From NCBI GenBank assembly GCA_958009085.1, contig OY253669.1:372001-436000 (forward strand): 64,000 nucleotides of DNA, given 5' to 3'. The translations under genes and the position numbers were made by a program. How positions within the stretch are numbered: position 1 is the first letter of the stretch; each line of letters starts with the position of its first letter. This DNA comes from Protoeuglena noctilucae. Lineage: Eukaryota. Shown here in pieces: positions 37,158-55,668 of this stretch. The notes beneath the pieces were generated by a model that saw only the letters and a list, made by a program, of their open reading frames with translations, ran no database searches and had not been told where the DNA came from.

Positions 37158-40100
37158 ATGAGCAAGTCGCCCATGACAATGGCGCTGGGGCCAGCGCCGG
37201 CGTCGCCAGGGTCTCTCCTTGAGCCCCTCCGGAAGTCCGTGGCTGCTGTTCTCTGGCCAGCCCTTCTGGCCTTGCTCGCCCTCTACGCCGCGGTACTCGC
37301 GGCGAGCGGTGGGGAGTATGACCTGGGGCTCCCCCAGGAGGTCGTGGCTTCTGCCACCGCTAGCCTCGGGCCAGCCACCGTGGCACAGGCCGCAGGCGGC
37401 GCGTGTCCTGACAGTCCCACGCCGTTCGTCGTCTTTTTCAGTGGGCACGCCGGCTCCTCTGCCCTCATGGACTCGCTGTCCCGCATCCCTGGCGTACTGG
37501 CAAGTGACCTGGGTCGTGATGAGAATGCAGAGTGCACAAGCTCGGCTTCATTGCTAGTGAAGCCCTGACTGCGCGTGGGCGGCCCGCAGAGTGCGCCAGC
37601 AGGGTGCTGAGCTGACTGGCACGTCGCTAAACAACCACATGCCGTTGTCCAAACTCGCAGGTTCCTGCCTTTGAGCCGTTGGACGCCCCCGGGCTGACTG
37701 AGTCCCAGAAACTGGCGTGGATCCAGGCCGCCTTTGCGCCACCCCCGCCGGGGTCCGGGAACGACGCGTGGGGCGCGTGGAGGGACGCGCTGGCCGAGAA
37801 CGGTGCGCGGCTGACCCTTCCAGAGGACTTCGCTGCCCAAGGACTTCCCTGCGTCCGAGCGGTCGGGTTCAAGATGCGCCCTTACGAGGGAGCGATGCAA
37901 TCCGCACCCCACACGGCGGCCACAGGGCTCGACCCGTGGGCCCTGCGTGATGAGCTGAGCAGGCGAGGGGCACGGACAGCAGGGCAGCTGACAACGAGGG
38001 TGGCGGCAGGCACGCGTGACTTGCAGCGGCCGTTGACAATGCAGGCACCAGGCGCGGGTCGTGGTCGTGATGCGGAGGAACCGCGTCCTGCAAGCTCTCA
38101 GCTGGTATCGCGCGCGCGTCCTGGGGGTGAACCAGTGGTCGCCCCTGGCCCTTCGCCGGGCCCTCGAGGAGGCCGGGTACGTCGCAGACCCGCAAGTGCT
38201 GGCGTGGCTGCTCGAGTTCTTCGACGACGCCAACCGACGCATCGAGAACGCGGCCGTCTTCCATGGGCGGCCGACCCTGCTCGTCTGGCACGAGGACCTG
38301 CTGGCGGACCCACACAGCACGATCTGCAGGGTGGCAGCGTTCCTGGGCCTCTCGGGTGCGTTCCGCGTCCTCGAGGACGTCAAAGTAGACCGCGTGTATA
38401 TCTCGCCACTAAGCAGGCTCTCCATGACGCTCACGTGTGCAACGTCGCAGATGTGGACGACCCTTCGCCGTCCAAATTCGTCAAGGCGACTCCGGATGCG
38501 GAGGCCCTCGACGCCGTGGCCAACGTAGGAGACCTCGCCGAAATGTTCCATGACACGCCCTATTGTGCCGACCTGGGCCCAGACCTGTGCCGGGAGGCGC
38601 AGGAATTTGCACGGCATGACCCCACGGGATGGCGGGACGTGCAGGCGGCCGCGCGGATCGCGCTGACAAGGCTGCGACGCGATCAGGCGCAGCAGGGGCG
38701 GGTCACTGAGGGCTTTCAAACACGCGACAAACACAGGCGCGGCTGGTCTTGCGTCGAGCGTGACATGGCCGCCACAGGAGGGGCCTTCGCCGAAATGACG
38801 CCCCAGGTGAGCCAAGCCGAGTGTATCATAGTCAGCCACGCTTTGGCTTCATTGCGATGCACGGGTGGGACTCTGGGTGACGCTGGGCAACGCATGTTAT
38901 CTCCTGCAGGAGTGCGGGGCCGTGGTCGACCAGCTCAATTCGCAGAGAGTGCTGGACGCGCACCGTATGCCCTCAGCGTCCGTCGTGCCCGTCTTCTTCA
39001 AGCACGAGCATAAGGCCGGGGGCACCACCCTCTGCGCCCTAGCCGGGGCAGTCACAGGTGCATGTGCGTGTTTCTGATGCAAGCAACTGGAACCCACCAA
39101 GTGGAGTGGCTCAAGCGATGTCCGGCTATCTCATTATTTCGTGCGCCCTCGATATCTGGCTATCTCGTCACTGTGCATGGCGCCCTCCCTCTCTGCAGAG
39201 ACCGCCCAGGGTACCCTGCTCGAGGACCCGTCCTGGGGGACCAATTGCGTCCCTCCAGAGACGTTCCAGCCGGGACAAGCCCTCTGGCGCCTCGACTTGT
39301 CGGCGTGGCAGGAGCCGACGGCTATGCTGCCCTGGGGAGGCAAGGCATGCTGGGCGCAGAACCTGTCGGTTGTGGCCCAGCGCGCCGTGTTTGATCATTT
39401 CACAGGCGAGGAGGGCGGCTGTGAGCGCCTGCATGCCTTGTCTCACCGTCGCTTAACAGAAGTGGGGGTACGGCAGGTATGCCACCTGAGCCCCTTGCCC
39501 AGCGAACCGCAGGGCTGGGCTTCTTGGCGAGCGAGGGCGCGATGCCAGACCCGGTCGCTCTGGACGTCCCGTACGCGACGGTCACGATGCTGCGGGACCC
39601 CCTGGACCGCACCTTAAGCTCGTACCATTGGTGGGCCTCTGTGGTCGACCGATTCAGTGACCGCGACGGCGGGAGGGACGCCGCCATCTGCCAGGCATTC
39701 TGGGCACCGCCGGGGTCCACTCTTGAGCAGGTCATGCGCGCTCCCCACCTGCGCCTTTGCGCGTTTGTGGCAGAGGCACGGGTCACGCAGATGGCAGCAG
39801 CAGGAAAGGTGCCAGTCCCTTCTCCGCAGTTCCTCGCCGTCTACCCGGATAACTGGCAGACGCGGTCTCTCCTGGGGCGGTCGGCGATGGCGGGCCGCTT
39901 CCAGGGGCCCTTTTCTGGGGGCCGTCTCAGCAGAGAGGACTTGAGGGTGGCTGTCGCGCGCCTGCACTACTTCACGGCCGTGCTGATCGTCGAGGACATG
40001 GAGGGGTCCCTCACCAAGATGCAGCGCATGTTCGGGTGGCGGCTTCCCGAAGACGCAGCCATGCAGCATCGCCTGCGGCGTGCACAAGGGCCCACGGATG

Positions 40101-40363
40101 CGCGCGCCGAGCTGCGGGGCCAGCGCGAGCTCCAGCACCTGCATGACATGCACGACATCGACCTGTTGTTCTACGAGCACGCAGTCGAGCTTCACTGCGA
40201 GTGAGGGCGCGTATGCTCTGGGAGGTGAGGCGCCGCGTGCCACCCCTGGTTGCTGAGGGAAGCTTTCCTGCCCTGACTTCGCAGACAGTTGGAGATGCTA
40301 GTCCTCACCAGCATCTTCTGCATGACGAGGCGTGGAGAAGAACAGCTGCTCAGGGAGTCTTGA
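37158..40363 (+). CDS. Type II membrane protein with two sulfotransferase domains
   Basis: TM anchor. Domain 1: FSGHAGSSAL, GFKM, RRNRVLQALS, WHEDLLADP (Stf0-like). Domain 2: FKHEHKAGGTTL, TMLRDPLDRTLSSY. The stop is at 40204 or, via one more intron, 40363. Confidence 0.75.
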
Positions 40364-40538
40364 GCAAAGGGTGGGCTCTGGCAAGGTCTTGCCCTGCGCC
40401 AGTCGCAGGCAGTGGCAGGGGGGGGAATATCCCTGCCCCTGGGGGGGCCTCCTGGATGTACTCTGCGATCGTGTGTCCAAGCGATACTTGACACTAGCTC
40501 TACAGCACTAGAGCATCGCCAGCACCGGACGGTTTATC

Positions 40539-41588
40539 ATGCCGGGCACTGCAGTCGTTGTGGGCGCGAGCCGCGGCATCGGCCTGGAGCTGACCCGGCA
40601 GCTGAAGGACAAGGGCTACAAGGTCTTCGCGACGTGCAGGACGGCCACCCCGGAGCTGGCCAAGATCGGCGCCAAGGTCATCGAGTCCGTCGATGTCGCG
40701 TGAGGGCCGCGTGCGCGCGGATCACGATGATTTGGATGCGATGCGTGTGCCTGGCCTTTGTTTCCGACCATTAAGATGCCGGCGAGGTCGCAAGGAATGC
40801 GCTTAAGGCCCAGATGCGCGTCGATGGGCCGACGACGTAATCCTGCGGCCGTGGACGTGTGCGCGGCCCGGGCGGCTTAGGAGCTGAATGCATGCCATCC
40901 CTATCGCGTACATGCATCGCACATGCGTCCTCAGCACGAGTTAGCTCCCACGCGCAGGAAGGACGAGTGCATGCCCGTGCTCGCCAGCGCTCTGAACGGG
41001 GAGGAGATTGAGGTGCTGATCTGCAATGCCGGCATCCTGCGCTTGGAGCCGGGGAACTTCGAGGAGCTCCCCACGCACTTCAACAGCATGATGGAGACGT
41101 ACAACGTCAACACGATCGGGCCCATCCGCTGCGTGTGGGCGCTGCGGAACCAGCTGCAGAAGGGCTCCAAGGTCGCCATAATCACCAGCCGTGTCGGGTC
41201 CCTGGCGGACAACGGGTCCGGCGGGATGTACGGGTACAGGATGTCCAAGACGGCCGTCAACATGGCGGGGGTCAACCTGGCTCACCAGATGAAGGACAAG
41301 GGCGTGGCCGTGGGGCTCATCCACCCCGGCATGGTCGAGACGGACATGACGTCGAGTTTCGGCGCCAAGGTGGGCCTCAACAATCATTTGCACTCACGAT
41401 TGCTCCCTCACACGGCACCCTTGTCGCTGTGTAACGCGCATGTGCTGCCGTCTCCGCAGGCGGGCCAGGGCACGTGCATCAGTACGGTGGACTCGGCATC
41501 GGGCATCATCGCCCGCATTGAGAAGGATCTCAGCATGGACACCACCGGCCACTTCTGGCACCAGAACGGCCAGGAGCTGCCCTGGTAA
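40539..41588 (+). CDS. Short-chain dehydrogenase/reductase, CsgA (C-factor)-like
   Basis: VGASRGIG, CNAG, ITSRVGS, YGYRMSK, HPGMVETDM, GHFWHQNGQELPW. Confidence 0.92.
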
Positions 41589-41739
41589 AGGGAGGGGTCG
41601 AGACCAAGCCTTGAACGGGACGCGCGTGCTTTGCCGATGCAGCGCCGTGCCTTGAAAGGCGAGGATGCACGAACCGAGAAACGAGTGAAGCCATGTCAAA
41701 CACTGGCCTAGACATAAACGAAGTCCATGGCAGCGGCGT

Positions 41740-44700
41740 TCACCGCCGTCCGCGCCCCCGCCCCCGCCCCTGCCGGGCCGGCGCTGCCCCGACCTCCACG
41801 TCGCCCCCCGCCATCTCCGGGTCGCTCTTGATCGCGTTCTGAGCGTCCAGGAACAGCGCCAAGTCCCGCACCTGCTCCTTCAGGTCTGCGAGCTCCGCGT
41901 CCCGCTTGCGCACCTCGGCTGTCATCTCCTCCACGCGCGCACGCCACGCGCCCTGGTCCGCCAGCACTGCAGGGGGACGGGACATCAAACAATGAGTCAA
42001 GCTGCCACCCAGAGATGTCGACGCGAGGCATCTAATGGCACTGACCGCCAACGCGGCCCCCGTACCGCGCGTGCACGCCGGGGTGCCCGTGCGACACCCA
42101 GCACCCCAGCACACGCATCTTTCACAATCAATTCCCAAACCTCACCCGTGTCCGCCAGGTTCTTGAGGAAGTCCCTTTCCTTCCGCAGCTCCCCCACCGT
42201 CGCACGCTCCTTGGCCAGCTTCCCCTCCAGCTCCTGCACCTTGGCCTGCAGAGCCCCGCGCCCGCGCGCTGTCTCCTGTTCCGCCGACAGCGCCTCGTCC
42301 AGTTTGTCCTCCAGGATCTGCGCAGGACACACGGCCACACCTCGCATCGCATCGCTAAGACCAACATCGCCAAGAGCAACGGTGTTGGCAAGTCCCTGAG
42401 GCCGCTCTGAGCTGAGCTGTGAACCCTGCTGGCGTGCCCTTGATAAACGGGACCAGTTTCATGCACTCCATGTCCAGACATGGAGAGACGCAGCAGAGGC
42501 GTGCGCCTCACCCGCTGCCGCCGCAGCAGGTCCTCTGCCTGCCGCTCCATCTGCCCCTCGAACCACAGCCGCTGCGACTCGAGCTGCGACGTGAGAAGGT
42601 GCTCGTACTCCCGCGTCACCGCCTCCATGCGGCTCTCCAGGACCACATCCTCCTCGCTCCTGTGCGCCCACTCCGCCTCCATCCCCGCCCCGCCCTCCAC
42701 CTTCATCCCGGACTTGCTGGGCTTTCTCCCACCAGGCTTGCCCTCCTCTTCCGTCTCTCGCCTCGCCTTGGCGTCCGCGCCCCCCACCTCGTCCCCGCCC
42801 GGCCCCAGCGACCCCACGAACTCCCCGGCTGCCCCACCTCCCGAAGACACCTCAACGATGAAGGTCTCTCCCGCAGCCCCCGCCGCCTTGGACTGCACGA
42901 GGCGGTGCACCCACCCATCTCCGACGTAGTCCCATACTCGCTGAGTGTCCAGCTCCAAAGCGTACGAGTGGCCATGGGCCTCCCAGTGCGCGCGGGCGTG
43001 GCCCCCGGAGTAGCGCCCGCACCCCACGGCGCCGCATATGAGGCACATCCAGAGGCTGTCGGACGCCCCGCACGTGGCGCACCTGGCGGTGCCGGTCGGT
43101 TGCAAGCAGAAGCGGCAGACGGGGCACGAGGTGTCGCCCCACTTGAGCAGGCACTCGTTGTGGAACGCGTGGTTGCAGACGGTCACGACCACGCCAGAGA
43201 CGTGCTCGTCCAGCCGCTCCAGGCACACAGGACACGAGGGCAGCTCCGTCTGGGCCGGCGCCCCCACCGTCGGGCCTTGCGTTGACGCCGCCGGGCACAG
43301 CGACGCGGTACCGTCGGAGAACTCGACCCCGCGGATGAAGCCGAGACGGCACACCACCTGGAAACAAACGCGTGCGTGGGATGAGCATGGTTGCAAGGCA
43401 CGGGTGGGCAGGTGTCGACAAGAGATGTGTCACTGCAAGGTGCTTGTCCTCTCACCTCAGGCTCCAGGGAAGAAAAGGGCCTTCCATTACACTCCCGAAA
43501 GAAGTCGTCGGCCGACTCCTGATCCTCAAACGCCAGCAGGGCCAGGTAAACGCTCGGCTCGCACGCGGGGTGGCGCTGCACCACACGCAGGGAGCGCACG
43601 TGGTGCAGGAAGGCCCCCAGGAAGCGACAGAACTGCGGAGCGAAGGGCAAGATAAAAGAGGGTCAGTCTTGCTGTAAACAGGAACACAGGGCAACAACGC
43701 GACGCTGCTGCACAGGTCGCAGTGGCACTTTGTGTGACTTCGCATCTCTCACCTCAGAAAGCGCCATGTCGGAGGGGACCGACAGACACGCCACCTCCGT
43801 GCCCCTGCCCTCTGGCAGCGCGCGTGCTGGGCGCGTGGAGGCCGCGTCGTCACGAGATGTGGAGTCCCGGAAGAGGTGGACGACACCGAAGATGCGCTCG
43901 ACGGCGGGGTTGCCAGACACGATTTCCATCGAGTCGGCGCCGGCGAGGGTCCGGGGAGCCCAACGGCGGAGTGGCATCGGGGGGGGTGGGGGCGGGTGGG
44001 AGTGCGGGGGTGGAGTCCCGGCCCCGCTCGCCGTCGCAGTGTGGGAGCCCTCGGCGCCGGCCCGGGACCGCGGGTGAGGCGTGGACGGAGCGGAGGACCC
44101 GTCAGCGACGCCCGCGCGCGACCTGGGGCTCAGCGGCCAGTCCCGCGAGGGCGGCCCGGGCAGAGGTGGGTGGCGAAGGTCCATGGACGCCGTCCGCCCG
44201 CGATTGAAGGACCCACGCGCACCGCGCGACTCGCTCGGCGGCACGGGCGGCGTCAAGGACCTGGCCGCGCCCGCCTCGTCGCCCCGAGATGTGCCCGGGC
44301 GCTCCGTCGGGACAACGTCGGTTCTCCGCGACGCCTCCCCCGCGGCCCCGGCGGCCGCTGCGCCCTCTCGGCGAGCTTGTGCAGCATCAGGTTGTTGTGA
44401 GGTCGACGGAAGCGGGGGAGGAGGCGGCGGAGGACGCGCGGGGGGGGCTTGGAAACGCTGAGGCACCCAGGGCTGCGCGTTCGGGGCAAGCCGCGACGCG
44501 GGCTTCCCGCGCAGACCCGGGCTAGGAGGACCCGGAGAAGATGCCTCTCCCCCGCTCGATGACGACGTGGACCATTCGACCACCAGCGAGCGGCCCTCGC
44601 CCCGGGGAGAGACGCTCCGCGCCTGCCGTGCTTCGGGACCTGCACACGGCCGCGCCACGCGAAAGGGTCCGTTGACGAAGCAGAAATCTTGTGAAAAGTA

Positions 44701-44848
44701 AGACATGCGCTGCTTCGACGGACGCGCATTGCGAGGAGCGATGCTCACCTGTCCGGGGCACGGTCGCCTTGGAAGCTTGCTCCTCAGCCATCACTTCGGC
44801 GAGAGATCCCCCTGACCGATGCCGTACCTCCACCTTGACGCTGTACAT
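41740..44848 (-). CDS. BRAP2: BRCA1-associated protein 2-like E3 ligase (BRAP2/BRIZ)
   Basis: BRAP2 domain (NGRPFSSLEPE), RING ELPSCPVCLERLD, zf-UBP LWMCLICGAVGCGRY...QRVWDYVGD and a C-terminal coiled coil. Confidence 0.93.
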
Positions 44849-45083
44849 GGATCTACCTGCGCCCCTTTGCGCCGGAGTGGCGCCCAGGGCCACGAACCCT
44901 ACGCCTCGGGGAGGCTTTGATGTTTGTGCGCGGAGGGCCGCTCCAATCGATGTGGCACACGACACGGGTTTGCCAAACGACGTCTGTGCATCAGACGACA
45001 AAGCATTCTCTTCTGACTGTTTAACTCTGGCGCAAGCCACTGCAAGGCGCGGCGACGACGCGGCGACACTCGGCTGCCATGGT

Positions 45084-46613
45084 TCACCACTTGCCCCAGT
45101 CGTCGTCCCCACCTTGGCCCCAATTTGCATTCCCGCCAGGCTTCGTCCCCGCGCCCGGACCCGACAGGAGGTCCTGCCCCGGACCCCGTGCCGGAGCCCC
45201 CTGCCCCGTCCCACCGCTGTGCAGGTCACCCGAGCTGTGCGCGCCGGTCGCTTGCTGCAGCCGCGACGGCACGAACACCTCCCGCTCCTCAAAGCCCTCA
45301 AAGCCCCCCTCCGACTGCGCGCTGGCGAACGCCCGGGTGGACGGGTCCTGGTGGGACCCGAACGTGGCCCCACCGACGTCTCGGTCAGACGCACTGTGCG
45401 CCACGCCGTGCCCGCCCCCGCCATGGCCCTCGTCGTCATACTCCGCCGCCAGGGGCCGCCCCGCCTGCTGCCACCCGTGCGACGGCGCGCCCCGCCCGTC
45501 CCCCTGCCCGTCGCTCGCTAACTCCCGCAGGGAGCTCGCGGCAGTCTTGGCGAAGCTCTTGAGGTATCCCCATCCCTGCATGCCCAGCGCCGCCGCCGAC
45601 TGCCCGATTTCCTTAGCACGCTGGTCCAATTGCTTCTCCTGCATCGGGCACAGGAAAGTACATGGGGGTCGGCAATGCCCAGCGCAGGCATTAAATGCCG
45701 CGTAAAATAAGCAGTCCGCCAGGCATCACCTGTGCGATGCGCCGCCCGTGCTCCAGCCCCGTCTTGGCCGCCTGCGCGGCCATGGTCGCGCCCTGGCTCA
45801 CGGCCCACCAGCCGAGGCTTAGGCCCTTGTGCAGGTGCGTCGAGAGGTCGTCGAGCTTGGTCCCGCCCGCGCCGTGCTCGTTCCAGGGCTCAGACGACAC
45901 CGCGCCCAGCCCAGAGCTGGGGTCGTTGCCGGCCCACTGGCCGCCGAGGGGCGGGGGCGGTGCGCTGGGCGCCGGCTGCCGCACGCCCATGTTGTCGGGG
46001 GACGGCGGGGGCGGGCTGTAGGCCTCGCCGCGGGCCTGCGCACGGATCAGCTCGCGGAAGAACCCCGCGGCGGGCGTGTTGTACTTGTCCTTGATTGGGG
46101 TCTCCTTCGGCACGTCGTACATGGCGAGGAAGTCGTTGAGCTGGCCGTTGCCGCCCAGCTGCATCCGACGGAGCTCGTCGTCCTTCCATGAGTCCATCGT
46201 GACGGAGCGCACGAAGGAGATGTGGACGCCCAGGCCGCGGTGCTGACCTGCACGGGGATTGTGCTCGATAGAAGCGTTCTTATGCGCATCATTATCTATG
46301 CAGCGACTCAGGGCGGCGCTGCGGGCGCTCACCGCTGCACTCGAGGCACATGAAGGTGCCGTAACTCACGCTCGCCCACTGCGGGCTCTTCTGGGCGCAG
46401 TCCACGCAAACCTGCAGATTCACGGACAAGTATGAGCGTGATGCCGTCCCCGCGGCTCCGCAAACGCCACAGCGCGCGAAGGACGGTGCGACGTGCTGCT
46501 GCGGACCCCTGAGCGACGATCAAGGTACCGCGTTGCCCAACGCGCGGCATCACCTTGTTCTCCGGTCGGTTCTGCAGCTCCCGCAGGAGCCTCAGAGCCT
46601 CCGGCTGCGCCAT
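45084..46613 (-). CDS. ADP-ribosylation factor GTPase-activating protein (ArfGAP1/AGD6-like)
   Basis: ENK|VCVDCAQKSPQWASVSYGTFMCLECSG|QHRGLGVHISFVRSVTMDSW; C-terminus DDDWGKW. Confidence 0.93.
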
Positions 46614-46895
46614 CGTTCGCCCCTTGTCAATCCCAGTCTCTGTGAGCCCTCCTTGCGCTGAACAGTGTGCATCAGGTGGTGGCCCGCGCACAGACAACAA
46701 CCTAGATTGGGAGCAGCGCATGGCCGCACGTTGCCGACCATCGCTCTGGCTGGCAGCTGGCACTGGCGTCGGCGCGCCTGAATCGAGGCTCGCCGCCGCG
46801 CAGTCGGAGCAAGCTCTTGAGCGTTGGTGTTGGAATGTGCTCAGATGTCCGGTTCCCGTTTTGGCTGAGGTATGCACGCTTACGTTCACATCTGC
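46505..46895. repeat. Direct repeat copy 1 (ArfGAP exon 1 + bidirectional promoter + diverged methyltransferase exon 1)
   Basis: 46542-46762 is identical to 48854-49074 (221 nt, offset 2312). The flanks align with substitutions and indels. Confidence 0.95.
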
Positions 46896-47190
46896 AGCGA
46901 CATGTGCCTCGGAGAGCCTGTGAAGGGACAGGGGCCTACCTTTCCGTCTCGATTGCAAGGTTGATTCCCGTGCATCCACCGTCGGTGGAAGCAAGGCGAA
47001 CCATTCGCAATTATTGCCAATGGGTCTGGAGGGGTTTTCCCCAGCCACTGGCAACGCGCCGTCGCCACACCTTTGGGGCTGCCACGCCTGGCGATGTCAC
47101 GAATCTGCAGAAATCCGCCGCGTCCATTTGCTGTTCAGACCGAAGGTGTTCTCGACGGGAGCGTCCCTTACTAAGCCGCACACTCATCCG

Positions 47191-48270
47191 ATGATCGCGC
47201 TCGTCGTAGGTGGGAGTAGGGGCATCGGCCTCGGCCTCGTCCGCGTGTACCTCCAGGCCGGGTACACGGTCTACGCGACGTGCCGAAAGCCCGCGGCGGA
47301 GCTGCAGAACTTGGGGGCTGTGGTGATCGAGGGCGTGGACGTGGCCACCGAGGATGGCGTTCAACGCATCCAGGCAAGAGCGGTGCTAAACGACACTCGA
47401 GGTGCAGTTGCGCAGCGCTGTGGTCCCGTTGGTGTTCCCAATGCGCCGGGCGGAGGGGCGCAGCCTGGCAAAGTGTCCCAAATTCGCCAGATCTCGCCCT
47501 CCGCACGCGCCCGCTTCTATGCGCCCGCTTCCGACACGCCTGCAGAAGGCGATGGAGGGCAAGAAGATTGACGTGCTGGTCCTCAACTCGGGTGTGCTGC
47601 ACGTCGCGGCCCCCGGGGACGCCACCTTCGCCCAGGAGATGAAGGACAGCGTCGCGGTCAACGCCACAGCCCCCGCCGTCATCCTCCACACCCTCCTTCC
47701 CAATCTCCAGGTGCCACACTGTCTGCGGCCATCACTGAGCCACTGTTGAGAGGCGCTGTCCGCCGTGACGGGAGATGCTCTGGTCATGTTTGCATCGTCG
47801 GTCTGCCTCCCCGCGCTGCGCAGTCGGGCTCCAAGGTGCTGGTTATGTCGACCCGCGCCGGCAGCTCCGCCTATGCTATGGGCGGCATGCTGCCGTACCG
47901 GGCGAGCAAGGCGGCCCTTAACAGCGTCATGCTCAATATGGCCAGCACTCTCAAGCCCCAGGGGGTAGCCCTCGTGATGGTGTGCCCCGGGCCTGTGGTC
48001 ACCGACATGCTGCAGGCAGCGTTTGGGGAAGGCGTCAAGGTTGGCGATGCCACCCCTGTCGGTCCAGCGCAGGCCGTCGAGGATGTCGCGCCGCAGCTGG
48101 TGAGGACTCTGCGACGGATGGCTTGCGCAAGCGACCTTCCCATGCTGCGTTCCGTCTTGCTCACCTCTCTGAAGCGCCCCGGTCCGCAGAAGGCGGTGGT
48201 AGACGAGCTGACGGTGGAGACCACGGGGCGGTTTGTGGGCGTGCCCGGCGAAGTGGAGGCCGTCTTCTAG
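47191..48270 (+). CDS. Second CsgA-like short-chain dehydrogenase/reductase
   Basis: VGGSRGIG, VLNSG, MSTRAGS, PYRASK, CPGPVVTDM. Intron 47374-47545 is GC-AG. Confidence 0.9.
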
Positions 48271-48818
48271 TCGCGCCCCACTCTTCTCTGCCGAGTCGGG
48301 CATTCATGCAGTGAGGCCGTGTAGCGGTCAGCGGCAGGCACCCGCTTGTGCGTGTCTGCATTGCCCCGTTCAACAAAAGCCCGGCGTCACGACTTGCGCG
48401 TGGGATGGCGCCTCTGGAGACGTCAGCTATGCTGGCCATGGGCGGCTGGCAAACCGTCGCGCCGCCGCCAGTGTTGCTACCCATCTTGCTTGCGCCTGCA
48501 TCGATCGTCGGCCGCTATGATCCGTATCGGCCATTGGGGCCGTCAACCACAGCGTCACTCGACTAGACCCAGTGTTGGCGTAGACTACTTACTACGGTAG
48601 TGAGTGTCCCTCAGGCTTGGCCTGCGGGGTGACCGCAACGCACATGGCCATGTCCTGGACCGTGAGGGATAGCAATGCTTTCCCTCTCGCCGCGTCGACA
48701 ATGTGCACGTCAGACAAACCCCGCACACCTGCCCTAGACGTCCCCGTCACGCACGCACCGTTTGCGAAGACGCGAAGGGAGCCATTGCCCTTCTGCTCCA
48801 GGACGTGGCCCCGCGCAG

Positions 48819-49233
48819 ACCCGTGAGCGACGATCGAGGTGCCACGCTGCCCAGCGCGGCATCACCTTGTTCTCCGGTCGGTTCTGCAGCTCCCGCAGGA
48901 GCCTCAGAGCCTCCGGCTGCGCCATCGTTCGCCCCTTGTCAATCCCAGTCTCTGTGAGCCCTCCTTGCGCTGAACAGTGTGCATCAGGTGGTGGCCCGCG
49001 CACAGACAACAACCTAGATTGGGAGCAGCGCATGGCCGCACGTTGCCGACCATCGCTCTGGCTGGCAGCTGGCAGCTGGCGTTGACGCGCCTGATCGAAG
49101 CAAGCCAGCCTCGGAGACAAAGCCAATCGCGCCGCCGCGCAGTCGGAGCAAGCTCCTGAGCGTTGGTGGTGGAATGTGCTCAGATGTCCGGTTCCTGTTG
49201 CGGCTGAGGTATGCAGATGTGAGGACATCTGCG
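48819..49233. repeat. Direct repeat copy 2
   Basis: Matches copy 1 and carries an extra ~20-nt segment near 49100-49128. Confidence 0.95.
48866..48925 (-). other. Duplicate ArfGAP first exon (possible alternative first exon)
   Basis: MAQPEALRLLRELQNRPENK plus a GTGATG donor, identical to 46554-46613. No local copy of exon 2 follows. Confidence 0.8.
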
Positions 49234-50552
49234 CAGCCGGTGGTCATGTACCGAGAGAGGGCCCAAAGCTGTCTCGTGATGTCTCGTTCTCTTCGCAGGG
49301 TCCCCGTCCGGCCTATCCTGGACGAGGCTCTGGGCGGGGAGATGACCGAGGAGGCCCAGCTGCGGCTGGAACGGGGGCTGCAGGACCCCCAGTGGACTGC
49401 ACACGAGCAAGGTCCCTACGCCATGCAGCTCCTCAACGCGGTCCTGGAGCGCGCCATGAGACAGGGCAGGGGCCTGTCGGACGAGCTGGCGGCTGAGCTG
49501 GTGAAATGGACGCGGGACCTGGAGCAGCGGGCGGAGCCTGGGTGGAGGGGGTCGCCCGTGGCCACGATGCTGCGCCGCACCGTCACCTGGCAGCCGTCAG
49601 ACAGCCCAAGCGAGAAAACTCTGACTGTGCGGGTATCGACCGACATGCTGGCCGGCAACACGGGCTGCCATCTGTGGCCGGCAGGCCTGGCGCTGGCGCA
49701 GGTGGTGGAGGAGAACAGGGCGTGTTTCCAAAACCGCGTCTGTCTTTCCCTGGGCTGTGGCGTCGGGCTGGACGGCATGGTGTGCTTGGGGGTTGGCGCC
49801 CGAGCCGGTGAGTGGCGGGCGCAAGTGGCATCCTGGTTGGCACGCTGCCTGGACGGTGCACTGCTGAACGGCTCTGGTTCGCCCCGGCCCTCGCAGTGGT
49901 GTTTGCGGATGCCTCGTCCGAAGCCCTCGCCAACACCGAGTTAGGCCTGTCGCTGAACGGCGTGAACTTCACGCGCGTGGCGGACGCGGCCGAGTGGGTG
50001 CCCCAGGAAGGCGCGGCGGTATGGAAAGTCCGTTTTGAGGCAAGCAGAGCGGGCACGTGCCATGGTAGGCGGCCTTGGGCGTGTGGGGGCCACGGCAAGC
50101 GCCCAGCTGCCCCTCGCCCGCAGGACGTCGATGTGGAGCTGCCTGAGGGGGCGCAGCTGCTGGCGGCGGACGTGCTCTACGGGCCTGAGCTGGCAGACGC
50201 GGTCGCCGACATGCTGGAGCGCCTGGCTCGCCGCAACGCTGCCATGCGGGGCATCACCTGCTGGTTGGCGGCCGCTGTCCGGGACCCCGATATGTTTGGG
50301 CGGTTTGCTGCCCGCGTCGAGTCGAGGTGTGTGTAGTCCGCACCGCGCTGTTGCGGTACCAGGATAAGGCGTGGATTGGCACCCGCCCGTGGCTGCCTTC
50401 GCAGTCCTGTGCTGCAATCCCGGACCCTCAACGACGACGCCAGCCACGATCTCTTCCCTGGTACGGATGCCCTCTTCTCTGGTTTCACCGAGTCTCCCAT
50501 CAAGGTACTCGCAATTACATTCAAGGACCAGCAGGGGTCGGATGCTTCCTAA
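49174..50552 (+). CDS. Methyltransf_16 family protein-lysine methyltransferase (EEF2KMT/FAM86-like)
   Basis: GNTGCHLWPAGLAL, CLSLGCGVGLDG, VVFAD, LLAADVLY. Exon 1 MCSDVRFLLRLR lies in repeat copy 2. Confidence 0.85.
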
Positions 50553-51462
50553 CTCGTCGCCTCTGCAGCAACCGGCGTCTGGCTCGCCCGCCATTGCATC
50601 ACCTTGTGCCCCTTTGCCCACTCGAAGCCAAGCCGCCAATAGACGCGGCGCTCCTCTGGCCTGCACCTCGCCAAACGAGGACAATGTGTCAAATGCAACG
50701 CGACTAAGCACGGAGCAGCAATGGCAACATCGCCCGCCACCCTTGCCTCGCAAACACGACGAACGTCTCTGGACCCCTCTTGCCCCATCGCCTGCGCGAC
50801 TTCAACAGCCTGCGCACCAGCGCCTCCGATGCGACCTCGGCGTCCTCGGCTGCTTGCGAGTCCACCGTCACGTCCAGCACCAGCGCAGAAAACACCCCGT
50901 CTGCGAGAGCGACCGGTCTAGTGTCATCCAGCTGTGCCTCGCGTATGCCGGCGACGGAGCGCGCCAGGATTTCACCTGAAACGCAGCGCGCGAAGCCGAG
51001 CAACACGCCATCGACCTCGATGGCCGCGACCGCGTAGCTGTGGCGCAGAGCCACGGCCCATTTGCGCGGGTCGTGCATCGCCCCACTCGCGTCCTTCCCC
51101 GCACGAGCCATCAGCTCTGCCACTGCCTCCGCAGACACGCCATCGAGCCCCAGCCACCGAACTGCCCGGGCCGGGCCGCCCGCGCGTCGAATAAGGTCAG
51201 GAGCCCTCTTCAAGCCACAACGTATGCCGGAAGAGAGCAACCTGCCAGACGTCGAGGCGGCGCTCGCGGCGAATTCGCGCATGCGGGCCGGTGGAGCACG
51301 TGTGAAGTGTGCACTGCTGGCTCGACGAACAGCGGCAGGCTTGCAACGGAATGCGGCATCACCAGCGTTTTTGGACAAACGCATCACAACTGAGGATGTC
51401 GACATCAGGCGCCGGTGGGCAGCTGGGGGGTAACCCTGACCCATCAGGGAAGTCGTTTCCAT
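50549..51462 (-). CDS. GNAT acetyltransferase, plastid NSI/SNAT-like
   Basis: KWAVALRHSY, LLGFARCVS|DGVFSALVLDVTVD, FAR|PEERRVYWRLGF, and a transit-like N-terminus. Confidence 0.75.
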
Positions 51463-51630
51463 GGCACCCAGGTCGATGCTGCTCGTGATGCAGCACGAAG
51501 TGCAGCCTCCAGTCGCTCACCTCTACACCCCAGCTCGCATCTTAACCCAGTAGCGCCTTTCCTGCGAGCGTTTCCTGGTGGAGTTGTTACGCGCCGGCGA
51601 CCTGGCCCAGCACGCAGGTGCAGGAGATCC

Positions 51631-52641
51631 ATGGGCCCCGTGAAGCAGTGGGTTCCGCTGGAATCCAATCCGGAGGTGCTGAACGAGTACGCTTCGCAGC
51701 TGGGCCTCAACATTCAGGAGTTGGCGTTCTGCGACGTCTGGGGACTCGATGACGAGCTCCTCGATGCGGTTCCCAAGCCCGTGTGCGCGGTGCTGATGCT
51801 TTATCCCATCACAGGCGAGCGCGGTGGACGCAGGCGGGTCTCCAACCGTTCCCTGCGCACCCGTGACCATTTCGTGAGCCGCGGAGTCCCTCCGCGATAT
51901 CTTTGCAGAGAAGTCGGAGAAGGCCATGGAGGACGAGGAGAAGCGCCTTGCTCAGAGCGGCCAGGAGGTGTCGTCGCGCGTGTTCTACATGCGCCAGACC
52001 ATCAGCAACGCGTGCGGGACCATCGCGCTTCTCCACGCCGTGGGGAATAACATGGACAAGACGGCTGTCCTCGACGACAGCTTCTTTAAGGAGTTCTTCG
52101 GCCGCACGAAGGGCATGACGCCCGCGGAGATCGGCGCGTACTTGGAGAACCCGCCCGCAGACGGCCCAAACATCGAGGTGGCCCACTCGGCGGCTGCATC
52201 CCTGGGCCAGACGGCCCCGCCCCAGCCGGGAGAGGTCAACTTGCACTTCGTCACGTTCGTCACCGTCGACGGGAACCTCTACGGTGAGCTTGGCACCCCT
52301 CGTCTGCAACTGTCGCCGTGGCATGGACACCCGAGGAGCGACGGTGCCACTGCACTGCCTCTGCAGAGCTGGACGGGCGCAAGAAGTCGCCGGTGAACCA
52401 CGGCCCTTCGACGCCGGAGACTCTGCTGAACGATGCAGGCAAGGCCGCGGCTGCGTGGCGAATCTGTGAGAAGTGGGGAGTGCGACCAGCCATGCCATGC
52501 CGTAGAGCTCGCCCGCCCGCGGCATGGGTCATTCCGTTGCTCTTGTCCGCAGTCCGCGTGGTGAAGCGCTTCATCCAGGAGAGCAACAGCATCGAGTTCA
52601 ACCTCATGGCATTCACGAAGCCAGGCACGTGGAACGTTTGA
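51631..52641 (+). CDS. UCH3: Ubiquitin C-terminal hydrolase (UCHL3-like)
   Basis: WVPLESNPE, QTISNACGTIALLH, LHFVTF, YELDGRK. Two GC-AG introns (51815-51908, 52439-52552). Confidence 0.95.
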
Positions 52642-52698
52642 AACTGGCGGAGCGGCAGGGGGCGGGGGGGCGTGGGAGGCGCTATATCGCCAAACGCG

Positions 52699-55668
52699 TC
52701 ACTCGTCGCCTGGCATGAGCTCGCTGGGAGGCATTTTGGCCACCATCGACAGGAGCGGCGCAGAGCTCGAGTTCTCGACCACAATCACGTGGATGTCCTG
52801 CGGGGCAGGCCGGGACAAGACGAATGCGAAACCGGCTGCTGTTTGAAGAGGCGGAGGGCCGCTGCGAGGACGACACGGGCGGCACAACAGGCTGCCACCT
52901 GTCAAGCGCTTTGGGTGCCCACGCATGCACAGCCGGTCGCAGCAGGCATGCGCGAGCAAAGCACTGTCCCGCACCCCCGCTCACCTCCGGCGGCGCCGCG
53001 GGGACGAGCGCTTTGACGGAGAGCTCGAAGGTGTAGAGCGTGCTGGGGACGAGCAGCGGCACGGGCACGACGGGCGGGTCGACTTCGTACGTCTCCCGGC
53101 TGTAGTTGATCACCATGAGAAGGCCGCGCACGCACTTGTCGCCCGTGTTCTGGAGCTGCAGCGTGACGAGGAAGGTCGGACCCAGGCCCATCACGTTGGC
53201 ATTCATCCGGAGGCTCGCCCCCGAGCCGTAAGACACGGCGCCCTTGCCGTCGCTCAGCACTTTGATGAACGTGCGGGCCGCTGCGCGACACGAAAGGGTC
53301 AGCAGTCGTTTTGCCCCTCACAGCTGCACGCGCTGGCCGCGCTGGAGCCAAAGGTCGCGACGACCCCACACCTGCATGCGGATCATGCCAAGCAGGCTAT
53401 GCTCGTCTCACCCGTCAGTCGCATCTTGCACAGATCCCTCTGAAACAGCCGGTGCATGTCGATGGCCGCCTCCCGCTCCCTCTGCGGCAACAACCACGCG
53501 GCACGCTTTGAACGCCCCCCAGCGTTACCCGCAACGGGGCTCCCAGTCCGCGCCATCACACAGTGCCCTCACCTGCGTCAGCTCGACGAATATCTTGGTC
53601 TTCTTGGGGATCTCGAGCGGCTTGACGTTCTCCGCGGTCGTGTGCACGTGGCCGTTGGCCAGGGGGTTGTGGCGGGGAATGAACTTGATGTCGAGGCCCC
53701 CGTTCGCAAACACAGACACCAGGGTGCTGTCCTCTCGGCCGTAGCGGCCAAACGCCATGGCGACCACCGGGCCGGGCATCTCGACTGCGTGTGCACCACG
53801 GGCCGCCACAGAAGTGAGGCTTCTCTGGGCCCAGTCCCAGTGCAGCAATGATCATAGCACAGACAGCAGCAAGTGCTCGCATGTACCAGCCACTGTTGCA
53901 GCGCGCCCACTCGCCTTCCCCGACGAGGTCCGTCTTGCGGTAGACGCGGATGGTCTTATCGGCGCACGACGCGGCAATGCCAACCTCTGCCATGTGCCGC
54001 ACCAGCCCACCGCCGGGCATGATGGGGATTCCCGTGATGGCCAGGATGGGCGACCCCGTGTAAATGCTGTAGCGCTTGGTGCCCGTGAAGGTGTAACACG
54101 ATATAGACTCGTCCATGCAAGCCACGACGAAGCTGTCCCTGCGGTGGGGTATGGAGAGCCATGCATGTCCAGCCCAACGCCGCCGGCATCGCACAGCCCT
54201 GCCCCGCGATCCCCGCCACGCAGGCAGCAGGCCCGTCGCAAGGTGGAAGTGCGCCAGCGGCCGCTGCACGGCGCCGTTTGGGGCGCATGGCACACGCATT
54301 GCCGCCTGGGCACGGACCTCAGCACGACGAGGCCCACGGCGGGGGCGGGTAGGGGAATCTTGAGGGAGTTCTCGAGCTTGGGGCCCGTGAGGACGTGGGC
54401 ACGGCCGTTGCGGGAGACGAAGACGACGACGGGACCGGTGGAGAGGGACCCGGCGGACCCGATGAAGGCGGGAGCCACCCCGACAGACCGGTCAATGACG
54501 ACGTCCGCCCCCGTTTTCTCGAGCACCAGCACCCGGCCGTCCTCGGTCGCCACCACCAGGTTGGACTCGCCGGCGACGTCGGGCCGGTCGGACATGACAT
54601 CGGTCAGCGCCGCGACTGCGAAGGGAACAACGACGATGGCTTGCGACACTGCCCCTGTCGATGCGGCCGGTGCGCGATCGCGAGCTGGTCGCGGGGGTTA
54701 CCTGAGGCGCTGGGGAAGCGCAGTGGCAGGCCCGACGACTTCTCGATGTACTCCTGTTGCGCCGCCTCTCCTTCCAACGCCACCAGCTCTAGCGTCTTCT
54801 GTGTCACCCGCACTGCCGCCGCCAGCTCCCCCAGGGTCTTCACCCCATCTTGCAACGACACCTGGCCCGACTCCAGAGCCTCCCACGCTGCGGATAAGCA
54901 CAAAGGGGCCGGCCATCGTCACAACGACCTCCTTGCCGCGCCACCCTCGCCCCATGCCCCGCCCCCTCTTGCCCCCTCGCCTGACTTCTCCTCTTGGCTG
55001 ACGTCAGGCACGGGCACAGTGAAGCGGAAGAATGGCCGCATCCTCCGATAGATGTACACGTTGGGCCCGATGGCCACCGCCAGGTTCGGGAGACGCCGCC
55101 CGCCTATGGACGACATCCCCGGCTCGGACACCGAGAAGGTCGCAAGCGCTGCGGAGAGGAATGCGCCCTCGGTGAATGCCGGGCCCGGTTCCGGCGCAGG
55201 GAATGCCGCGCCGATTGAGCCAGGCATGGGCGCGCTCATGCAGCCTGGCTTAGCTGGGCGAAGCTACCCCGCACCGCGCTGCTGGACTATACGGTCGCTG
55301 TGGTGGCAACGCGCATTGAGTTGCTTGTCTGGAACGAGCGTGCCGCGTGCCTCACCTGATGGGACGTCGCTGAGCGGGTTCTCGGCCGCCATCATAGTCC
55401 CCCGAAACACCTTCAGCTTCCTCGACACCGTCGCGACGACAAGGCGGCTGTCATTGTCCCCATACAGGTCACACATCGTGAACATCGTGCTGTATGTGTC
55501 TGCACGGGGGAGACACGTCCGACCACCTCAACACGGCGGGCGATGTGCGCGCCCAGAGAGGCCCACTGGCGGATGGGAGCCAGCGAACGCACCTAAACCA
55601 GTCATGTTGTCTGAGAAGGCATCCAGGAAAAGCTTCTGCTTGCCCACGGCGTTGACAGTGTTCACCAT
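52699..55668 (-). CDS. BBS1: Bardet-Biedl syndrome 1 protein (BBSome core)
   Basis: DLYGDNDSRLVVA...KLKVFRGT, VYIYRRMRPFFRF, FGRYGREDSTL, IPKKTKIFVELTQ|RERE, MHRLFQRDL, GLGPTF. Confidence 0.93.

Follow-up and report, generated by a model that had tools for sequence, protein, structure and literature searches.

A short-chain dehydrogenase/reductase gene between two copies of a head-to-head promoter unit in the green alga Protoeuglena noctilucae

Here we describe a locus in a 64-kb stretch of Protoeuglena noctilucae DNA (contig OY253669.1, positions 372,001 to 436,000; hereafter the window, whose own coordinates are used throughout), where a complete gene for a short-chain dehydrogenase/reductase (SDR) lies between two direct copies of a unit of about 400 nucleotides (nt) that contains the 5′ parts of both neighbouring genes, a minus-strand ArfGAP gene and a plus-strand methyltransferase gene. 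The window has a GC content of 64-75% per 2 kb, and its genes bear introns. We propose, with a probability of roughly 60%, that SDR DNA was inserted in a single event into a head-to-head ArfGAP/methyltransferase pair, that the target was duplicated in the process, and that the spare halves became relics while the two copies went on converting one another.

An SDR gene bracketed by a duplicated unit

Repeat search and alignment placed copy 1 at 46494-46876 (~383 nt), next to the main part of the ArfGAP gene, and copy 2 at 48808-49215 (~408 nt), next to that of the methyltransferase gene; no strand is assigned to the unit as a whole. Within it is a core of 221 nt (46542-46762 in copy 1, 48854-49074 in copy 2) that is 100% identical between the copies, has a spacing of 2312 nt, and covers ArfGAP exon 1 with its 5′ untranslated region (5′UTR) and 12 nt of the adjoining intron. 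The flanks are less alike, with 44 nt at 84% to the left and, on the right, a part of 86 nt at 94% whose spacing is 2339 nt. Over the full unit the alignment gives 360 matches, 21 mismatches and 31 gap columns, the latter mostly from one 26-27-nt indel that corresponds to a spacer segment present in copy 2 only (49083-49129, limits approximate) and bearing a CCAAT at 49123-49127 that copy 1 has lost. Just beyond the unit boundaries, identity drops to 20/64 and 25/64. A 48-nt stretch of the core is found two times in the window, where 100 shuffles give an expectation of 0.00, and no further repeat of at least 50 nt was found anywhere in the 64 kb. These results bear out an earlier note on this DNA, which had claimed a ~400-nt unit occurring twice, 2312 nt apart.

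The unit consists of part of ArfGAP intron 1, ArfGAP exon 1, a short spacer, and methyltransferase exon 1 with its splice donor. Both exons and the intergenic segment had been named in the earlier note, and we find them as claimed, together with intron pieces of both genes. The left end of the unit (~46494) lies within ArfGAP intron 1 and its right end (46876 in copy 1, 49215 in copy 2) within methyltransferase intron 1; since the unit takes in ~60 nt of the former intron and at least 5 nt of the latter, both breakpoints are intronic. Between the copies is a unique insert of 1931 nt (46877-48807) that holds the SDR gene together with 5′ and 3′ regions belonging to it. The direct repeats abut this insert on both sides, and the repeated sequence belongs to the target genes. 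The SDR gene is complete and intron-containing, as had been reported, and its model of 234 amino acids (aa) agrees letter for letter with the database protein P0001. All nine of the non-coding open reading frames in the insert (9/9) are without a Pfam family; no inverted repeats of at least 30 nt were found in 44000-52000, no tRNA in the window, and no Rfam match at E up to 0.1 within 40000-54000.

The duplication is genuine. An assembly artefact, the possibility that the earlier note itself had held against its reading, was checked for in DNA-type contigs of two runs, a culture run from an independent study (X3) and a metagenome run (X7), and the duplication stands. The independent culture data contain 0.99 of the sampled window words, and the X3 unitigs (45324-46571, the 221-nt core, 46733-48883 and 49045-51000) form the graph expected from the assembled order; the sole alternative reading of this graph puts the SDR gene on a free circle. 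In X3 the core is one unbroken unitig at roughly 300x, so both cores are truly identical in that culture. A contig of X7 (48598-49441) bridges copy 2, running from the SDR 3′ region through the whole copy into methyltransferase exon 2. The copies themselves differ by 25 events, all outside the 221-nt core. From these differences, the culture unitigs, the bridging contig and the RNA contigs of each gene (see below), we conclude that the repeat was not created by assembly. Two readings of contig depth were set aside: that of X3 (324 on the core, 212-292 on its neighbours) as a test of copy number, contig depth not being copy number, and the zero depth of X7 on 46407-46808 as a sign of a missing copy 1, this run having ~4x coverage and other gaps.

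Uneven identity between the copies

When the 25 difference events were placed at random over 385 sites, 200,000 times, the longest identical run observed, 221 nt, was reached by none of the placements (0/200,000). Outside the core identity is ~85%, the flank segments scoring 37/50, 39/72 (indel included) and 63/68. An identical core inside ~85%-identical flanks, together with the outcome of the permutations, indicates a recent gene-conversion tract between the copies, which would be the simplest cause of the 221-nt identity and which goes beyond the claims of the earlier note. The duplication itself is probably older than the tract, to judge from the ~15% divergence outside it, a value far above the difference between the window and the culture (11 of 13 contigs at least 99% alike). 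We attach no meaning to the coincidence of the tract with ArfGAP exon 1, as by our own arithmetic a random 221-nt tract covers that exon in ~17% of placements.

Use of the two copies by the flanking genes

The RNA data are contigs of two metatranscriptome runs (X8 and X10), both of study P3; the sample behind X8 may be the one from which the window derives. Of the twelve joints, ten were seen in both of these runs and two in X8 only, and none outside the RNA runs; they confirm ArfGAP introns 1-3, the three SDR introns, four methyltransferase introns, and two introns of a convergent minus-strand gene.

Methyltransferase exon 1 lies at 49148-49208 (+), with its ATG at 49174 and its donor at 49209, and the RNA joint from 49206 to 49297 has 59 nt (X8) or 51 nt (X10) on its 5′ side. 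The exon in the RNA contigs shows 0 differences from copy 2 over 49148-49206, where copy 1 differs, and the methyltransferase gene therefore uses copy 2. The corresponding exon of copy 1 (46835-46869, +) is a relic that has kept the ATG and the GT donor, with codons 8-10 changed (PFW vs LLR), and no RNA contig depth is seen on 46809-47009 in X8 or X10.

On the other side, ArfGAP exon 1 (46554-46747, minus strand) carries 20 codons of coding sequence, from the ATG at 46613 to 46554, after which the donor follows. Its 5′UTR would extend to at least ~46747, inside the core, on length arithmetic from the X8 RNA contig. Intron 1 (46412-46553, 142 nt, minus strand), which contains the left breakpoint, is supported by an RNA joint in X8 (46409 to 46552, cut +2), and exon 1 is thereby spliced to the exon 2 that adjoins copy 1. 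The earlier note had assigned the ArfGAP gene to copy 1 and the methyltransferase gene to copy 2; the second half is confirmed by an RNA variant, and the first agrees with adjacency, which is the only guide for an exon that is the same in both copies. The further copy of the ArfGAP exon 1 coding part, in copy 2 (48866-48925, minus strand), is identical to the original with its donor intact, and may be either a relic or a spare. A depth of 4.77 in X10 on 48819-49019 may reflect either ArfGAP exon 1 placed on copy 2 or RNA from the left flank peculiar to copy 2, where ArfGAP intron 1 is partly copied (48808-48853).

The ends of the divergent ArfGAP and methyltransferase RNA contigs are only ~60-90 nt apart in unit coordinates, which implies that the shared promoter is very short.

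Transcription of the SDR gene

The SDR transcript spans 47114-48815 (+) in the RNA contigs, with three joints, each found in both RNA runs. Its contigs begin at 47114 (X10) and 47124 (X8), at least 238 nt past copy 1 and inside the insert. No joint from the methyltransferase-like donor of copy 1 to the SDR gene was found, nor any loose ends, and the absence of depth on 46809-47009 holds for both RNA runs (2/2). RNA contigs are a weak guide to transcript ends and cannot fix starts; within that limit, the SDR gene does not appear to use the duplicated promoter. A CCAAT occurs in the insert at 47017, ~95 nt before the SDR contig start, and the only CCAAT in the spacer between the start regions of both flanking genes (49123) sits in the segment lost from copy 1, both of which we note as observations and not as tests.

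This pattern is the opposite of what promoter capture predicts. The earlier note had suggested that the duplication gave the SDR gene a ready-made promoter, but the SDR contigs start inside the insert and contain none of the copy-1 module, which argues, if weakly, against the suggestion. In its explicit form, the SDR gene would be driven by the plus-strand half of copy 1, and transcription would begin at the methyltransferase-like exon 1, which would either be read through or be spliced on as a leader. The ATG and GT donor retained in copy 1 would allow this, as would a possible acceptor (CTGCAG) that ends at 47110, just ahead of the two contig starts, and RNA-seq often under-covers 5′ ends. 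However, the same runs that give neither depth on 46809-47009 nor a joint from 46869 nor a loose end did assemble the 59-nt first exon of the less-covered methyltransferase gene. Moreover, copy 1 is without the 26-27-nt spacer segment that bears the CCAAT, and the insert has the separate CCAAT mentioned above. We therefore consider it unlikely that copy 1 drives the SDR gene.

The SDR gene and its relatives

The SDR coding sequence is made up of four exons (47191-47373, 47546-47710, 47824-48099 and 48190-48270, +) that encode 234 aa, and intron 1 is of the GC-AG type. Three of the four exons match the adh_short family (Pfam PF00106; E=3e-06, 0.0012 and 2.7e-10), while exon 2 taken alone falls below the cutoff. 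The motifs GGSRGIG and YRASK are visible in P0001, and we take these to be the glycine-rich N-terminal motif and the YxxxK active-site motif of classical SDRs. By these family features, the product is a classical, C-factor-like short-chain dehydrogenase/reductase. The SDR RNA contig extends 545 nt beyond the stop (48271-48815) to the edge of copy 2, a long 3′UTR for a compact locus; this 3′ region contains no TGTAA or AATAAA, and one TGTAG at 48320.

A second SDR gene is present in the window at 40539-41589 (+), 6.6 kb upstream, and encodes a C-factor-like protein of 232 aa with 2 introns. Its product is 38% identical to that of the insert SDR gene, of whose three intron positions it shares 0. 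No closer SDR copy that might have served as donor was found within the 64-kb window. A full HMMER search with the SDR protein gave 24,395 relatives at E up to 0.001, among which none exceeds 44% identity, fragments of the same gene excepted; the nearest named proteins are eukaryotic, from a Pedinophyceae green alga, two oomycetes and a chytrid. A tree of 69 rows was built from the two window proteins, P0002, P0003, and those of P0127-P0199 with 195-275 residues. In it, the partner of the insert SDR is the Pedinophyceae protein (SH-aLRT 95) rather than the local paralog. On these comparisons we take the SDR gene to be an old gene of green algae that was relocated to this site; it is not a recently made local duplicate, nor is it evidently an import from bacteria.

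Proposed history of the locus

Because each copy carries 5′ parts of both genes, the ArfGAP and methyltransferase genes would once have been direct head-to-head neighbours, and the ancestral pair supposed by the earlier note thus follows, by structural logic and not by synteny. A repeat-insert-repeat arrangement with an unrelated middle cannot be produced by simple tandem duplication. We postulate that in the ancestor an AGD6/7-type ArfGAP gene and an EEF2KMT-like gene stood head to head around a very short shared two-way promoter. A 1.9-kb piece of DNA, with a complete SDR gene and its own upstream region, would have been inserted into this shared promoter region, and the same event would have duplicated ~0.4 kb between offset breaks, one in the first intron of each gene. 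The outcome would be a very long target-site duplication, arising when a staggered break was filled in or when replication switched templates. Each flanking gene would have kept its promoter, first exon and splice donor, and the insertion would thereby have been tolerable; only under this geometry do both neighbours keep all three, which would explain why the arrangement survived. In the present state the ArfGAP gene adjoins copy 1 and the methyltransferase gene uses copy 2; the two spare half-units would be relics, and SDR transcription would begin within the insert, at a distance of ~370 nt from the start of the ArfGAP gene. The copies would still exchange sequence, the tract over ArfGAP exon 1 having been homogenised while the remainder drifted to ~85% identity. 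We regard insertion with duplication as a plausible reading of the locus.

Several points weigh against it. The ancestral adjacency of the two genes, and the absence of the SDR gene there, rest on structure and not on the genomes of relatives: a metagenome scan with methyltransferase exon 2 returned three loci, all unrelated (73% GC, a single 28-residue match, no ArfGAP or SDR), a protein search with the same exon gave 0 matches among 1570 candidates, and a comparison with other windows brought up no similar locus. No SDR donor locus was found in a search that covered the 64-kb window, and the insert borders, inspected by eye, show neither transposon ends nor microhomology. The depth of the core in X3 (324) is not double that of its neighbours (212-292), though, as said above, contig depth is no measure of copy number and we draw nothing from it. 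The RNA support consists of contigs of one study that are unable to fix transcript starts. Lastly, repeated gene conversion could mask a much greater age, which would allow older histories of several steps.

One such history has two steps: a larger tandem duplication would have brought an SDR gene from close by up to a second copy of the promoter unit, and a deletion would then have removed the duplicated gene bodies, so that the locus would be a join-point rearrangement and not an insertion. The same-strand SDR paralog 6.6 kb to the left, beyond the ArfGAP gene (40539-41589), is where this model predicts one to be, and gene conversion could cause the age of the promoter copies to be underestimated. 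However, the paralog is only 38% identical, has none of the three intron positions in common with the SDR gene, and is passed over in the tree in favour of the Pedinophyceae protein; with no closer SDR copy in the 64 kb and at least two events required, we hold a two-step origin to be improbable.

A further possibility concerns the use of the spare half: copy 2 could act for the ArfGAP gene as a second, distal promoter and initial exon, spliced across 2.45 kb to exon 2. The ArfGAP exon 1 of copy 2 has an intact donor, and this is the only copy with the CCAAT, ~65 nt upstream. An ArfGAP mRNA started there would be letter for letter the normal one, and hence invisible to contig data. Were copy 2 to serve the ArfGAP gene in this way, the SDR gene would lie antisense inside an alternative ArfGAP first intron, and use, in addition to conversion, would maintain the perfect identity across the exon. 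We think this quite unlikely.

Integration of a circle would also give the observed arrangement, if circular DNA with the SDR gene and one unit recombined into the chromosomal unit; the reverse reaction would excise it and produce presence/absence alleles. The repeat-insert-repeat geometry fits such an event exactly, the copies demonstrably recombine (as the conversion tract attests), and at the analogous BRCA1 locus recombination between duplicated copies causes recurrent deletions, according to part of one report (PMC8268747). The empty-site allele that the earlier note proposed to look for was not seen, as none of the 12 joints is present among the DNA-type contigs of X3 and X7, contigs being prone to drop rare variants. 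Furthermore, the ~15% divergence outside the core speaks for an arrangement that has long been stable, and the circle leaves its own first acquisition of the unit unexplained, so that we rate this origin as very unlikely. That the repeat was collapsed or mis-joined is scarcely credible: although the window appears to derive from a marine metagenome and a 221-nt perfect repeat is longer than short reads, the copies have different flanks (25 difference events), the four unitigs recur in the independent culture data, copy 2 is spanned by a contig of another run, and each gene is connected to its own copy in the RNA contigs.

Flanking genes and other features

The ArfGAP gene is identified by its zinc-finger ArfGap domain, which starts in exon 2 (46333-46411, minus strand; Pfam PF01412, E=4.1e-09; bounded by RNA joints) and continues to match in exon 3 (E=2.1e-12). 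Of its named relatives, the best are green-algal and plant proteins of the AGD6/7 type, 62-68% identical to it across the domain. Between the SDR paralog and the ArfGAP gene, a long open frame at 42128-43700 (minus strand) shows RING/zinc-finger-like cysteine patterns by eye.

Exon 2 of the methyltransferase gene (49299-49807, +) matches human EEF2KMT (PDB chain 8fzb_A) in phmmer with E=4.2e-06 over 59 residues; against Pfam Methyltransf_16 it gives E=0.0098, below the family cutoff, and exons 3-4 have no Pfam match. We name the gene EEF2KMT-like, a label of resemblance and not of proven identity. Its RNA contig passes the stop (TAA 50550) into two introns of the convergent minus-strand gene (window 50550-51000), which implies that the 3′ ends of the two genes overlap or abut. 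Among the 12 RNA-supported introns in 45-51 kb, three are of the GC-AG type (47374-47545, 50040-50123 and ~50661-50746), an unusually high share; after allowing for cut shift, the donors include CAG|GCAAGA and GAG|GCAAGC.

Comparison with known systems

If our reading is correct, the locus would be a clean, small and RNA-supported case of a gene placed in a shared promoter of well under 100 nt with its neighbours left intact, these surviving by duplication of the whole module of promoter and first exons. It would also be a case of gene conversion acting between 0.4-kb copies that are 2.3 kb apart in a compact algal genome. Module duplication and gene conversion both matter for how gene-order change is read in small eukaryotic genomes. 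For annotators there is a caution as well, in that spare first exons whose start codons and donors are intact might wrongly be built into gene models.

Staggered breaks yield duplications of adjoining sequence, and in Arabidopsis paired nicks with 52-nt overhangs led to insertions copied from adjoining sequence, as part of one report describes (PMC5103219). Our locus resembles the insertions from such paired nicks or 'patch-mediated' breaks in that the insert is directly bracketed by duplicated target. It differs in that a ~400-nt duplication here encloses a foreign 1.9-kb gene, whereas the reported cases are mostly short tandem duplications. By analogy, a staggered break may have been the mechanism at this locus. 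The arrangement also recalls promoter capture by partial duplication, since the SDR gene stands directly downstream of a duplicated promoter/first-exon module, but the SDR contigs contain no module sequence, and the defining feature of that class thus appears, on contig evidence, to be lacking.

A literature search for a structure of this kind brought up only the BRCA1 locus as relevant, which is no proof that others are absent from print. The closest known case appears to be the duplicated BRCA1/NBR1 bidirectional promoter of catarrhine primates (BRCA1-NBR2 and BRCA1P1-NBR1). As far as the consulted parts of the sources describe it, that duplication likewise took a head-to-head shared promoter together with the first exons of both genes, and ended in introns of both (bioRxiv 10.1101/2025.11.08.687349); each full gene has one copy, the spare halves are relics, and the copies, which are separated by unrelated sequence, undergo recombination and conversion (bioRxiv 10.1101/2025.11.08.687349; PMC8268747). 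On the same partial accounts, the differences are of scale and content. The unit is 0.4 kb here and ~4.4-14 kb there, that is, 10- to 30-fold smaller in our case, and one compact, intact and expressed gene stands between the copies where the primate locus has 28-32 kb of repeat-rich sequence. The primate spare halves are transcribed (NBR2, BRCA1P1), whereas no RNA contig shows this for ours, and the present locus belongs to a green alga. With its architecture already known, by this comparison, from primate BRCA1/NBR1, the locus would be best seen as a small example of a known rearrangement, one that opens no new question.

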